This document shows positions 37,111 to 44,288 of a stretch of DNA of 64,000 bases, in pieces. The stretch spans positions 1,184,001 through 1,248,000 of the forward strand of contig OZ241917.1 in assembly GCA_965203805.1 (NCBI GenBank), read 5' to 3'. The notes beneath the pieces are model-generated. The model was not told where the DNA came from. It saw nothing but the letters and a program-made list of their open reading frames with translations, and searched no databases. Position 1 is the first letter of the stretch. Each line of letters opens with the position of its first letter. The stretch is from Candidatus Latescibacterota bacterium (lineage in GTDB: Bacteria > Latescibacterota > UBA2968 > GCA-2709665). The position numbers were made by a program, and so were the translations under genes.

Positions 37111-40100
37111 TTACTCCAAATTCTCCGTTGACAATTCTGCCTGTCGCAAGACGAGCTGCGTCGCGTCTTCGGCCAGATCCGGAGGGTAGCCGTACTTTGC
37201 GAGCAGCCGGCGAACATTGCGCCGCAGACTCGCCCGTACGGACTCGCGTTGGGTCCAGTCAAGCTTGGGCATGCTCTTAACCATTTCGGTCAGTTTGCGA
37301 GCCATGAGGCGTAGCGTATCGCTCTGCATCGCTTCTCTGGCTGACTCGTTCTCCGCCAGGGCGTCGTAAAAGGCAGTTTCCTCGCTGCTCAGACCCAGTT
37401 CTTCACCGTGGCGTTGCGCGTCCCTTAGACTCTTCGCCAAGTCAATCAGCCGCGAGATCATCTCGGCGGTGGTGATCGCCCTGTTCGTATAGCGCAACAT
37501 CGCGTTTTCCAGGGCGTCGCGAAACTTTCGGCTCCGGACAATGTTCGTGCGCTCGGTGATACGAATCTGATCATTGAGCAGCTTGCGCAGCGTCTCCAAA
37601 GCCAAGCTCTTCTGCTCCAGTGCCGCCACCCGACCAAGGAACTCATCGCTAAGGATGCCGAGGCGGGCTTCCGACAGCCCCGCGACGGCGAACAGGTCGA
37701 TTACTTCGTCGGCATCGATCGCGCCGCCGATCACCTGGCGCACGGCGGCGTCGACGTCGCGTTTCCGAGCTTGACCGTCGCCATCGTCGGTATCGTCAAT
37801 CAGTCGTTTTCGAATCATCGCCACCACACGCTGGTAGAACGCGAGGTGTGCCGTGATGGCCTCGGTCTCCGGGCGCGGAACCGCCAACGCGAAGGCCGCC
37901 GACAGCTCCTTGACCAGTTTCCGCAGGCGCTTCCAGCCGTCGTTCTGCCCAAAGACGTGATCAATCGTGCGTAGATACACCCCAAGCACGGCTTTCGGTT
38001 TGGTGTCGAGCGCATGCTCGTAGTCGCAACCGTGGAAGAAGTCGCGCAGTTTCTCGAAGGCTGCCTGCATGGCAGGCACAGCCTCGTTTTGCACCCTCCT
38101 GACCGCCTCGCCCGTGCCGCCGGCATGGGTGTACGTCGCAAGCGCATCTGCCAACTGGTCGGCCAGACCCAGAAGGTCCACGATTAATCCACCGGGCTTG
38201 TCTCCGTGAACGCGATTCACGCGTGCGATAGCCTGCATCAGGTTGTGCCCGGCCAGCGGCTTATCCAGATACATGGTGTGTGCCGGCGGACAGTCGAAGC
38301 CGGTGAGCCACATGTCGCAGACGATCACCAAGCGTAGATTGTCGTGGGGGGCCTTGAAGCGCTCCGCCAGACGCTTGCGGGCGGTCTTGGTGCGCGCATG
38401 GCTCCTGAGCGGCTCGGGATCTTCTTGGCTGCCGGTCACGACCACCTTCATCGCCCCCTTTGCGTCGTCGACGTCGTGCCAGTCCGGGCGAAGTGTGCGG
38501 ATGGCCTCGTAGAGCCGCGCGGCAATGTCGCGGCTCATGGTCACGACCATCGCCTTGCCTTCCATAGCGGCGCGGCGCTTCTCCCAGTGTTCGACGATGA
38601 ACGCCGCAAGGCGTTCGATGCGCTCCTGGGCACCGACCAGGGACTCCAGTGGTACTCGGATGCTGTCATCCGCCCCTTCTCCACCGCGGTCGAGGTTGGC
38701 AACGTACTCAACATGCTCCTCGGCGACGCCCGCGCGCTCCTCGTCCACCTTCAGTTTAATGACGCGCGATTCGTAGTAGAGCGGCTGCGTGGCGCCATCC
38801 TCGACGGACTGGCGGATGTCGTAGACGTCCGCGTACTCGCCGAAGACGTGGGTCGTGTTTCTGTCGTCCCGTTCTAGCGGCGTGCCGGTGAAGCCGACGA
38901 ACGTGGCGTTCGGGAGCGCCTCCCGCATCCAGCGCGCGCCGCCCTCGACGAAGCCATACTGGCTGCGGTGGGCCTCGTCGGCCATAACGACCACGTTCGA
39001 ACGCTCCGAGACCACGCCGTGTGCCTCAGCAAACTTCTGAATCGTCGTGAACACCACCCCACCTGCCGCGTGGTCGAGCAAGGCCTTGAGATGCTCCCGG
39101 CTCACGGCCTGGACCGGATCCTGACGAAGCAGCGCGCGCCCGGCAGCGAAGGTCTCGAAGAGCTGATCGTCCAGATCGTTGCGGTCGGTGATCATGACGA
39201 TCGTCGGGTTGGTCATGCGCGACTCTCGGATCAGCCCCCCGGCCAACATCAACATAGTCAGCGACTTGCCCGAGCCCTGGGTATGCCAGATCACACCCCC
39301 GCGACCATCGCCCGTGCCGGACGGCGGCTTGAGACGCGCAAGCACGCTGGCGCGCGCATTGCGCACCGCGCGGAACTGGTGGTAGCCTGCGATGTTCTTG
39401 GCGATCTCGCCACGTTCGTCCTCCTCGAAAGTGACACAGGTTCGCAGGTAGTCGACCAACGTCCGCGGATGGAACAGGCCCCGGATCAGCGCCTCCAGGG
39501 TCGGCGCGCCTCCATCCTCACCACCGTCGATCCGGCGCCACGGCATGAAGCGGCCACGCCCGCTGGTGATCGAGCCGACGCGGTTCAGCATGCCGTCCGA
39601 GACCACCAGCACCAAGTTCGGCACGAACAGTTCGGGGGCGGTCTGCATGTAACGATCGAGTTGGTCGATGGCCGCACCTAGATTTGCGTGGGTGTGGGTC
39701 GGGTGTTTCAGCTCAATCACCGCGATCGGCAGCCCGTTCAGGAATACTGTCAGGTCCGGGCGGACGATCTTACCCGATGGCCCCGCAACACTGAGCTGGC
39801 GGACCACCAGAAGCTCGTTCGCGGCCGAGTTGTCGAAGTCGACCAGCCGTGCCCGCCGTCCACGGATTTCGCCACTCTTCGCGTCGCGGCACTCGATCTC
39901 GACGCCGTCGGTGAGCATTGCGTGGAACCAGCGGTTATTCTGGATTAGTGTCGGATGCGGCGGGCGCGAGAGGATGCGTACGACCCCCTCGATGGTGTCG
40001 TGCGGCAGATCGGGGTTGAGGCGATGCAGCGCGGATGCGAGGCGGCCCGTCAACATGGCCTGGGACGTATCGCCGCGCTCGCCAGCGTCGTCGATCTCGG

Positions 40101-40185
40101 CGTTGCATTTCACAGCCACGCCGGTCTCTCCGAAGTACAGAGGTGTCAGGTCTTCGACGAACTGTTCGTTGAGTCGTGCCATCAT
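37111..40185 (-). CDS. hsdR: Type I restriction endonuclease subunit R
   Basis: RPD...IELK nuclease motif, [34 protein letters not shown]-terminal DWT.RESVRA...[10 protein letters not shown]. Confidence 0.97.
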
Positions 40186-42610: not shown

Positions 42611-44288
42611 CGGCTTTGACTCCCCCAAGTCGTTCCCGCACCACCGCCATCAGCCGCTCCCCCTCGCCAAAGCACTCCACTAGCTCAGCCAGCAGACGCG
42701 GGTACATGTCTGCGAACGGCTCGCCATCGTCCTCGACTTCCTCCGCGCCGACGTAGCGGCCGGGGGTAAGCACGAAGCCGTGCTTACCAATGCGCGCGAT
42801 CGTCTCGGCCTTACAGAAACCGGCGATGTCGCGGTAGGCCCATTTGCCGTGCTGCGCTTCATTCCACCAGTCGGGCGGGGGCTCGCCCCGCCACTGGCGG
42901 AAGGCGTAGACGATGCGGCCGAGGTCGGAATCGAAGTTCGAGTCGCCCGTGCCGTCGGCCATCATGCTTTCGCCATCGTCGCCGCCGGTGAGCACGCGAA
43001 GCGTGCGGGTCCGCATCGTGCCGAGCTTGCGGGCGTCGATGAAGAGCGTCTCGCCCTTGCGGTCACGTCCACCGTGCTTGAGGTTCCTGCCGGTCTTGTC
43101 ACGGGTGAGGAACCAGAGGCAGGCGGGGATGCCGGTGGTCAGGAAGAGTTGAGCAGGCAACGCGACGATGCAGTCCACCAGATCGGCCTCGACAATGCGC
43201 TGGCGGATTTCGCCCTCGCCGCCGGAGCCGGTGGAGAGCGAGCCGTTGGCCATGACGAAGCCGGCGACTCCGCCTCCGTGGCCGTTAGGCGGCGCCATGT
43301 GGTGGATGAAGTGCTGAATCCAGGCGTAGTTGGCATTGCCGACGGGTGGTGTGCCGTGACGCCAGCGCACGTCGTCCGCCAGCAGCTTGCCCGACCAGTC
43401 CGAGATGTTGAACGGCGGATTGGCGAGGATGTAATCGGCCTTGAGGTCGGGGTGCAGGTCGCGCAGGAAGCTGTCGGCGGGCTGAGAGCCAAGGTTGGCC
43501 TCGATGCCGCGGATAGCCAGGTTCATGTGAGCCAGCCGCCAAGTCGTTGGATTAGACTCCTGGCCGAAGATCGAGATATCGGTCTTCTGTCCGCCGTGCG
43601 CCTCCACGAAGCGTTCGGACTGCACGAACATGCCCGCCGAGCCGCAGCAGGGGTCGTAGACGCGGCCCTCATACGGCTCGAGCATCTCGACCAGCAGCCG
43701 CACGACACAACGTGGCGTGAAGAACTCGCCGCCGAGCTTGCCCTCGGCCTGGGCAAACTTGCCGAGGAAGTACTCGTAAACCCGGCCGAGCGTGTCGCGG
43801 GCTTTAGCGCGGTCGCCCTTGAAGCCAATGTCGGCGATCAGGTCGATCAACCCCTTCATTTTTTCCGGCGCGATGCCGCGACGGGCGTAATCGCGGGGCA
43901 GCTTGCCCTTGAGGTTCGGGTTGTCGCGCTCGACGGCGAGGATGGCGTCGTCGATCAGCGTGGCGACATCCGGCCGCGCGGCCTGGTTCTGGAGCTTCTG
44001 CCAGCGTGCCTCGGGCGGCACCCAGAAGATCCGTTCGGCAGTGTATTCGTCGCGGCTCTCCAGCAGGCTTTCGATCTGAGGTCCGCTGATGCCGTCGGCT
44101 TCCAGTTCGCCCTCGAGATCGCGGCGCCGCACCTCAAAGGAGTCGGAAATGTACTTCAGGAAGAGCAGGCCGAGGACGACGTGTTTGTACTCGGCAGCGT
44201 CGATCTGACCGCGCAGGGCGTCGGCCGACTTCCAGAGGACTTCGGCGTAGGCCAATTCGGTGGTGGGTACAATGCCATTCTTCGTCAT
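42603..44288 (-). CDS. hsdM: Type I R-M methyltransferase subunit M (m6A)
   Basis: [43 protein letters not shown]. Confidence 0.97.

Follow-up and report, generated by a model that had tools for sequence, protein, structure and literature searches.

The window analyzed here, a stretch of 64,000 nucleotides (nt) from a Candidatus Latescibacterota bacterium (contig OZ241917.1, positions 1,184,001 to 1,248,000), carries on its minus strand a type I restriction-modification (R-M) operon in which a gene that we call orfX (positions 40182 to 41303 of the window) is lodged between hsdS and hsdR. Its product, of 373 amino acids (aa), combines an acidic N-terminal module, a predicted HEPN domain, and a small beta domain. 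The tie of OrfX to type I R-M is near-obligate, and its module is common to Abi_C and SIR2 proteins encoded at the same place after hsdS, in two type I families and operon layouts. By analogy with PrrC and Ronin, we consider it rather probable that OrfX is a second-line abortive-infection effector coupled to R-M via this N-terminal module. What appears to be new is an un-named, ATPase-less family with its own architecture, the strength of its tie to hsdS and hsdR, and the portable module that it has in common with Abi_C and SIR2 proteins.

Tie of OrfX to type I R-M operons

Close homologues of OrfX were found at 11 genome loci (one genome per species), and all 11 have the order hsdM-hsdS-X-hsdR, where X is the OrfX homologue. 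These loci come from metagenome-assembled genomes labeled with at least seven phyla, the record titles including Chloroflexota, Acidobacteriota, Gemmatimonadetes, Actinomycetes, Halomonas, Burkholderiales, Rhodanobacteraceae, and Trueperaceae. Identity to the window ranges from 85 to 94% for HsdM, from 74 to 89% for HsdR, and from 55 to 82% for OrfX; judged by these sequences, the 11 loci are one cassette spread widely by transfer. A further set of 43 metagenome loci reaches distant relatives, 27 to 47% identical to the first sequence of alignment A7. There, all 34 loci whose upstream sequence exceeds 400 nt have hsdS immediately before X (34/34); of the 30 loci whose downstream sequence exceeds 400 nt, 27 have hsdR immediately after it; and both genes adjoin X in 23 of the 24 loci with both flanks. 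The exceptions on the hsdR side are L097 and L117, in which a RhuM-family gene stands between X and hsdR, and L116, in which a truncated X is followed by a transposase gene. The R-M association supposed in the initial annotation of this DNA holds well, as OrfX homologues almost always lie within type I operons or are fused to Hsd-like parts. No OrfX relatives were found on 72,556 plasmids by tblastn, nor in IMG/VR viral contigs with the patterns used (alignments A7 and A1).

The HsdS subunit of these operons is conserved very unevenly. Across 10 aligned OrfX loci, residues 158 to 436, which comprise the central helix, the second target recognition domain (TRD), and the C-terminal helix, are 76 to 90% identical; residues 1 to 157, i.e., the first TRD, are 16 to 26% identical. 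From these alignments, the first recognition domain is replaced among OrfX loci, and the second seems to be locked to the slot gene.

Broken copies of X were found in both sets, 2 of the 11 genome loci carrying a shortened X (L007 and L011) and 5 of the 43 metagenome loci a split one. Such losses are what one would expect if the effector is costly to carry. At L007, ~3.5 kb is inserted between hsdM and hsdS (approximately positions 3474 to 7036 of that locus) in addition to the shortening of X; at L011 (positions 8001 to 8659), X lacks residues ~169 to 317, and thus the Rx4H motif described below, and changes frame. Other genes are also embedded in operons of this type: a DUF1016/YhcG PD-(D/E)xK nuclease gene lies between hsdM and hsdS in five OrfX-type loci (L094, L095, L097, L099, and L112), and a PIN-domain gene is embedded in one (L108).

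In the window itself, the host operon is of type I by the Pfam domain sets of HsdM, HsdS, and HsdR, all of which were matched. The methyltransferase subunit HsdM (42603 to 44288, minus strand, 561 aa) matched N6_Mtase (E = 3.8e-93) and HsdM_N (E = 1.2e-23); HsdS (41300 to 42628, minus strand, 442 aa from a TTG start or 436 aa from an ATG at 42610) matched Methylase_S in two stretches (E = 3.3e-20); and the restriction/translocase subunit HsdR (37111 to 40185, minus strand, 1024 aa) matched T1RH-like_C (E = 1.5e-111), SWI2_SNF2 together with ResIII (E = 5.6e-73 for the former), HSDR_N (E = 8.4e-32), and T1R_D3-like. The four genes overlap or abut one another. The gene order hsdM-hsdS-orfX-hsdR and the coordinates given in the initial annotation were borne out by the translations and Pfam, and direct reading of the minus strand as reverse complement confirmed both of the overlaps that it had described: the start codon of orfX lies over the stop codon of hsdS (GTGA, 41300 to 41303), and the start codon of hsdR lies over the stop codon of orfX (ATGA, 40182 to 40185), which indicates translational coupling on both sides of orfX. 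The GTG start of orfX is supported by 29 of 31 close homologues, whose sequences start at the corresponding position. OrfX is encoded in single copy in this genome.

HEPN assignment and the N-terminal module

OrfX belongs to a family of ~373 aa that has so far gone without a name. Against Pfam, the window's protein returned only noise (E = 0.19); nothing was matched in PADLOC 2.0.0 or NCBIfam at E ≤ 10. A word-index search retrieved 151 relatives at E ≤ 0.001, the best 120 of which are 296 to 387 aa long and without a Pfam domain, those with any name being annotated as "hypothetical"; an exhaustive search of 1.84 billion cluster representatives retrieved 175 relatives at E ≤ 0.001, and a search of the ESM Atlas returned unnamed clusters only. 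While the alignment of 31 close relatives contains many invariant columns, that of 87 relatives (18 to 48% identity) contains only two, R207 and H212, each conserved in 87 of 87 sequences. Other strongly kept residues are N208 (83/87), E118 (86/87), W117 (83/87), and L203 (85/87). The two invariant residues bound the motif RNAFSH (residues 207 to 212; 40668 to 40685, minus strand), placed at the end of helix 194-210 and before helix 218-238. As the initial annotation had noted, this motif and the 13-residue stretch upstream of it (residues 112 to 124) both fall in predicted helices. In the HEPN signature, the residue next to the arginine is polar and a histidine comes five positions after the arginine (PMC3710099). 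An Rx4H pattern in one protein could be due to chance, but the conservation of R207 and H212 in all 87 relatives makes it count as a HEPN motif.

Two further lines of evidence point the same way. When the 87 relatives were scanned one by one against Pfam (E ≤ 0.1), HEPN_Swt1 was the family most often matched, by 10 members with a best E of 1.1e-5; HEPN_RiboL-PSP was matched by three members, HEPN_MAE_28990 and HEPN_Apea by one each, and the 18 further families listed by one member each. In relative P0263, the HEPN_Swt1 stretch (residues 653 to 705; 16.9 bits for a cutoff of 27.5) includes the RNKLSH of this protein at residue 678. The AlphaFold2 model of OrfX (pLDDT 87.1, pTM 0.88) is predicted to be globular and falls into three parts, namely, an N-terminal helix/beta-hairpin/helix unit (residues ~19 to 87), a HEPN-like bundle with an insertion (~86 to 245), and a beta domain (246 to 351) followed by a final helix. 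In a VIA-align comparison with 48,161 PDB representatives, HEPN chains head the list for residues 86 to 245, with Z scores of 8.3 to 6.0, values that helical bundles can reach by chance, root mean square deviations of 3.1 to 4.2, and 103 to 122 aligned residues. Two of them are HEPN toxins by their titles (8xdj, Z 8.0; 7ae2, Z 7.1), and others are HEPN proteins according to the literature (1wwp, Z 8.3; 5yep, Z 7.5; Csx1 8y7g and 8y7f, Z 6.0 to 6.1). Roquin (4txa and 4qik), 1jog, 1ylm, 1ufb, 3c18, and LsoA (5hy3), also among the fold matches, are chains that we take to contain HEPN domains. Because three independent weak signals agree (the motif, the Pfam HEPN matches in relatives, and the fold ranking), residues 86 to 245 of OrfX very probably belong to the HEPN superfamily. 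This helical domain, in which W117 and E118 are also kept, corresponds to positions 40569 to 41048 (minus strand). As stated in the initial annotation, OrfX has no Walker A motif: a regular-expression search was negative, and no ATPase family was matched.

The C-terminal beta domain (residues 246 to 351, followed by helix 352-365; 40251 to 40568, minus strand, delimited from the models) accompanies the HEPN part in every architecture seen. Folded alone, it reached a pLDDT of 87.5, and a Foldseek search with it gave no match. An OB fold was considered for this domain and set aside, the best Z of 5.7 and the many OB rows at Z 4 to 5 being too weak for such a claim.

These weak OB-fold-like matches bear on the idea that OrfX is an accessory, possibly noncatalytic subunit of the R-M enzyme, involved in its assembly, in restriction alleviation, or in target choice, with the HEPN and beta domains binding nucleic acid and killing nothing. 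The translational coupling on both sides of orfX would suit such a subunit, as would the 76 to 90% identity of the C-terminal two thirds of HsdS in OrfX loci while the first TRD is swapped; moreover, some HEPN domains, e.g., that of Swt1, are thought to be noncatalytic RNA binders (PMC3710099). We nevertheless hold this idea to be quite improbable, since the arginine and histidine are strictly invariant, with an asparagine after the arginine as in active HEPN RNases, since pseudogenized copies of X sit inside otherwise intact operons, and since the alternative occupants of the slot are homologues of killing effectors (the HEPN of AbiJ and the SIR2 of ThsA, Dsr1, and Lamassu).

These alternative occupants revealed the module. 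Among 168 genomes of the window's phylum, four besides that of the window encode an HsdR at least 68% identical to the window's. In the three of these genomes with usable loci (L014 to L016, with HsdR 87, 88, and 68% identical), the slot between hsdS and hsdR is filled by a 270-aa protein instead of OrfX, and the OrfX profile matches these proteins only over its positions 13 to 74, i.e., the N-terminal unit of OrfX, at their C-terminus. A fourth case was found in an operon with an HsdR 46% identical (L024). All four slot proteins are Abi_C proteins (PF14355) by Pfam, with E values of 1e-10 to 1e-12, and in PADLOC their sole match is to AbiJ, at its HEPN end. Their C-terminal ends are homologous to the OrfX module, with profile hidden Markov model E values of 1e-12 to 2e-18. 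Two loci with Abi_C in the slot (L070 and L071) encode HsdM and HsdR 89 to 91% and 87 to 88% identical to those of the window; as these subunits are as close as in OrfX loci but HsdS is only 39% identical, compared with 76 to 90% for residues 158 to 436 in OrfX loci, it seems that hsdS, in its 3' part, and the slot gene are exchanged together.

In OrfX, the module spans residues ~28 to 80 (41064 to 41222, minus strand) and is modeled as a helix, a beta-hairpin, and helices. An alignment of 17 module sequences (A3) shows the recurring elements F-N-x-x-L-D and P-S-x-[VI]-L ... D-x-x-A-Y. These sequences are strongly acidic, with a net charge of -4 to -13 in 16 of the 17 and of -2 in the window's copy. 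Searching with the A3 profile among longer proteins retrieved 190 proteins at E ≤ 0.01; among the 120 matches listed, 111 carry PF14355 (one of them fused to Methylase_S), 8 are of the OrfX type, and one is a 115-aa protein without a Pfam domain. In the window's phylum, 5 of the 168 genomes encode the module, and in all 5 the module gene is the one directly upstream of hsdR.

In a sample of 401 genomes from the phylum to which the Halomonas locus belongs, nine matched the A3 profile. One match is the OrfX locus of Halomonas itself and another falls on a contig of 1.9 kb; the other seven loci were inspected. L061 has the order hsdM-hsdS-(Abi_C + module)-hsdR, and L063 has a broken module open reading frame abutting hsdR. 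At L064 and L065, the gene directly after hsdS encodes an Abi_C-like protein that bears the module: L065 is ordered hsdR-mrr-hsdM-hsdS, its HsdR being of the EcoEI type (EcoEI_R_C in Pfam), and at L064 tblastn showed genes resembling hsdR and hsdM farther upstream, on the same strand. The two weakest matches, L062 and L067, have no R-M genes nearby and are probably due to chance, one being a 43-aa fragment with an internal stop and the other a GGDEF-EAL protein at 18 bits; both are counted in the tallies.

The remaining locus, L066, extended the module to a third effector type, with the order hsdM-hsdS-(module + SIR2_2)-hsdR (PF13289, E = 4.9e-23). A search with the L066 protein retrieved 437 relatives at E ≤ 0.001, the best 120 of which are 375 to 400 aa long, all carry PF13289, and cover 90 to 100% of the query; the module is N-terminal in this SIR2_2 family of ~385 aa. 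Across 26 aligned SIR2 members, the N-terminal F, N, S, L, and Y of the module do not vary, and hhalign aligned A3 with the SIR2 alignment over 53 columns with a probability of 95.7% and an E of 9.8e-9. The same arrangement occurs on a plasmid of Vibrio maritimus (hsdM-hsdS-SIR2-hsdR) and, with a gene for a hypothetical protein between hsdS and the SIR2 gene, on a plasmid of Photobacterium damselae, with a 4-nt overlap onto hsdR; a third plasmid match to the SIR2 protein starts at residue 75 and hence lacks the module. In the EcoEI-type layout, a gene for module + SIR2 comes after an operon ordered hsdR-hsdM-hsdS at L076 (A3, E = 4.4e-5). The PADLOC ThsA, LmuA, and Dsr1 models cover the module-SIR2 proteins only from residue ~96, and these models, like that of AbiJ, span the effector parts only and not the module. 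From these alignments, the effector part looks exchangeable and the module looks like the common element, and two of the three module-bearing effector families are, by sequence, homologues of known abortive-infection effectors. We found no description of the module, or of SIR2 or Abi_C coupled to hsdS, in the literature searched, supplementary tables being outside that search.

Five relatives of OrfX (P0257, P0263, P0268, P0270, and P0272; 792 to 844 aa) join an HsdR-like nuclease/helicase N-terminus to a C-terminal OrfX-type HEPN and beta part. They match the OrfX profile only from position ~68 to 71 and keep RNxxxH, and the module gave no match in any of them even at E ≤ 10. In these five fusions, which place the effector on one chain with an Hsd-like protein, the module is absent. 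P0268 also carries a weak Methylase_S stretch. In another relative, P0188 (664 aa), the module, HEPN, and beta parts are followed by a PNP_UDP_1 domain (nucleoside phosphorylase superfamily), a putative second effector. At L068 (plasmid NZ_CP065043.1), a 266-aa hypothetical protein encoded between hsdS and the module-SIR2 gene (positions 6193 to 6993) gave no Pfam match and no module match, and a Drt2 reverse-transcriptase defense gene lies just upstream of the operon.

The main rival to a coupled effector, unlikely in our view, is that OrfX is an independent abortive-infection defense gene lodged in the operon and unregulated by R-M. Its module would then be its own sensor, for a phage protein such as a DNA-mimic antirestriction protein or for nucleic acid, and its embedding would reflect cotransfer or coexpression. 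The slot directly upstream of hsdR is a hot spot: in operons with a 46 to 49% identical HsdR, surveyed among relatives in the window's phylum (L017 to L042), it holds DUF2290, DUF1828/1829, DUF4276 (found twice), PIN, HNH_5, HATPase_c_4, or a DDE transposase. DUF4276 is presumably the AriB part of PARIS. Furthermore, embedded systems (HECs) work when cloned alone (10.1101/2024.01.29.577857), and Ocr is sensed directly by PARIS (PMC12707154). The association of OrfX is, however, far tighter than a mere hot spot would produce (34/34 and 27/30 for hsdS and hsdR, and 5/5 for the module genes in the window's phylum). The association holds in two operon layouts, always after hsdS, and the module is the one thing that the three unrelated effectors, all tied to hsdS, share. 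There are, moreover, proteins in which the effector is covalently fused to HsdR-like parts, and in these the module is missing.

Proposed model and known systems

We propose a model in which OrfX, a stand-alone ATPase-less HEPN protein whose nearest families are the Swt1/Abi2-like HEPN families and which is most likely a metal-independent RNase, would be translated right after HsdS as an obligate passenger of the type I operon. By analogy with known systems, OrfX would be held inactive as long as the R-M complex is intact, probably by its HsdM/HsdS core, since hsdS is the constant neighbor in both operon layouts. A phage that disables or perturbs the R-M complex would release or activate OrfX, with RNA cleavage and growth arrest as the outcome. 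Coupling would fall to the N-terminal module, which would dock the effector to the R-M complex, and the acidity of the module suggests, no more, a seat on a DNA-binding surface. A predicted HsdS-OrfX complex (alignments A5 and A1) gave ipSAE values of 0.00 and 0.00, which count neither for nor against binding. More tentatively, the ~55-aa acidic module could be a universal plug by which suicide effectors of interchangeable kinds are connected to the type I methyltransferase core, perhaps on its DNA-binding side, from which DNA-mimic antirestriction proteins or loss of the complex would displace it and so fire the effector; this wider idea is possible but on the doubtful side. The effectors seen on such a plug would be, as judged from their domains, a Swt1-like HEPN with a beta domain, an AbiJ-type HEPN, and a SIR2 NADase.

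If true, this would define a modular and widespread class of R-M guards with one sensing principle. The sensing of a restriction system disarmed by a phage is known in few cases (PrrC, PARIS, Ronin, and retrons), and OrfX would be a simple, single-gene, and tightly linked one. The module would provide a concrete handle on whether type I enzymes are guarded hubs for abortive infection, and it would put a name to three groups: OrfX-type proteins, many "abortive infection family" proteins, and the "SIR2 family" proteins of R-M loci.

Several observations weigh against a HEPN effector coupled to R-M. The close-homologue loci represent one transferred cassette and hence are not independent, and the peptide pattern used to collect the metagenome loci includes the HEPN motif, which leaves this sample valid for context and not for motif conservation. 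The window's copy of the module is divergent, only 11 to 30% identical to the other A3 members, and tight embedding may arise from selfish cotransfer or coregulation without physical coupling (10.1101/2024.01.29.577857). As for the HEPN part, OrfX itself matches no HEPN model, and the HEPN matches in its relatives are weak; the profile of the 87 relatives found nothing meaningful among PDB sequences (best E = 0.18); Foldseek matched the whole model to nothing in PDB or BFVD at E ≤ 0.001; and a Z of ~8 falls in the chance range of helical bundles. With no family model reaching threshold on OrfX, Foldseek and the PDB profile null, and Z values middling, OrfX could be a helical protein of a non-HEPN fold whose R...H pair has another function. 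Against this stand the motif itself, the Pfam HEPN matches in 15 of the 87 member scans, and the HEPN chains topping the 48,161 compared, and we regard a non-HEPN fold as very improbable. The NTPase-free HEPN protein put forward in the initial annotation is upheld in part by the conserved RxxxxH, by the lack of an ATPase, and by the HEPN matches in relatives and in the fold list; it found no backing from Foldseek or from HEPN profiles run on OrfX itself. Its further proposals, a ribonuclease that R-M silences and that antirestriction proteins set off, stand by analogy, and it overlooked the module shared with Abi_C and SIR2 effectors.

The coupled effector that we propose is like PrrC in concept, and OrfX is neither a member of the PrrC family nor Ronin, AbiJ, or PARIS. 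PrrC is masked by EcoprrI and released when the phage T4 protein Stp inhibits the R-M enzyme (PMC3710099, PMC12707154), and its association with type I R-M is near-exclusive (10.1101/2024.01.29.577857). In EcoprrI (type Ic) as in the window, a gene for a HEPN-type protein, a nuclease in the case of PrrC, is embedded among hsdM, hsdS, and hsdR. PrrC, however, has a regulatory N-terminal ABC-type NTPase domain, whereas OrfX has no Walker A motif or ATPase domain according to Pfam, NCBIfam, and PADLOC, and carries instead the 55-aa acidic module and the C-terminal beta domain. Because it has no NTPase domain, OrfX falls outside the PrrC family, and no sequence relationship between the two was detected in any search made. 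In Ronin, composed of HsdS, HsdM, and RonA, the toxicity of RonA is suppressed by HsdMS and unleashed by ArdA, Ocr, or Aop1 (10.1101/2023.04.06.535777). The tight linkage of the effector to hsdS and hsdM fits the module genes, which always follow hsdS, but RonA is a 61-aa membrane protein and Ronin comes without hsdR, while OrfX is a 373-aa soluble predicted HEPN protein with hsdR present.

AbiJ/Abi_C (PF14355) is related to OrfX through the slot occupants that bear the same module; OrfX itself has no PF14355 or PADLOC AbiJ match, its HEPN domain belonging to another family, and it differs by its N-terminal rather than C-terminal module and by its extra beta domain. HEC-08, a DUF3644 HEPN protein inside Hma systems, lost its defense activity upon mutation of the histidine of Rx4-6H (10.1101/2024.01.29.577857). 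It resembles OrfX as a single-gene HEPN nested in a larger system and differs in HEPN family, host system, and accessory domains, OrfX matching none of the PADLOC 2.0.0 models at E ≤ 10. A 2013 report placed at least 16 HEPN clades in conserved R-M neighborhoods and proposed for them a PrrC-like reversible inhibition by R-M subunits (PMC3710099). OrfX is close to the R-M-linked clades of the Abi2/Swt1 group described there by Anantharaman et al. in that its relatives match HEPN_Swt1 most often; it differs in that OrfX lies below the Pfam HEPN threshold and in that its three-part architecture and shared module are absent from the text portions compared. Genes embedded in type I R-M systems were catalogued in 2024 under the name "guilt by embedding" (10.1101/2024.01.29.577857), and "RM guardians" have been reviewed (PMC12707154). 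The initial annotation, which presented the locus as a candidate new system, went too far on this point, as R-M-embedded HEPN genes with PrrC-like logic had been proposed in 2013 and embedded genes are covered by the 2024 catalogue.

Genomic surroundings

The G+C content of the window is 51 to 60% between 32 and 47 kb and 63 to 68% outside this stretch. The operon is flanked on the same (minus) strand by genes for a Mrr-type restriction enzyme (33770 to 34684; Mrr_cat and Mrr_N), an HNH endonuclease (35474 to 36298), and a DUF772 transposase of the insertion sequence (IS) type (44732 to 46258). Together with these flanking genes, the lower-G+C stretch of ~32 to 47 kb looks like a small defense island. 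A scan for sigma-70 promoters and terminators performed no better than on shuffled sequence.

Such surroundings, with the IS transposase, Mrr, and HNH genes in a low-G+C island, might also suit an addiction module, in which OrfX would be a stable toxin neutralized by an R-M subunit and would kill cells that lose the cassette. The four genes of the cassette have spread across phyla together, HsdM being 85 to 94% identical, and the HEPN toxins of HEPN-MNT pairs are classic toxins of toxin-antitoxin systems, as the titles of 8xdj and 7ae2 indicate. However, no cognate small antitoxin gene is present, and the survey of 72,556 plasmids yielded no relatives. R-M systems, moreover, already confer addiction through the loss of methylation. 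Postsegregational killing is in our view highly improbable as the role of OrfX.

Within the operon, the kilobase that holds most of orfX has a G+C content of 56.5%, compared with 64 to 65% in mid-hsdR and mid-hsdM. Outside the window, the same genome encodes a second type I HsdR, 49% identical to that of the window, at G000:C1:5384040-5387060.

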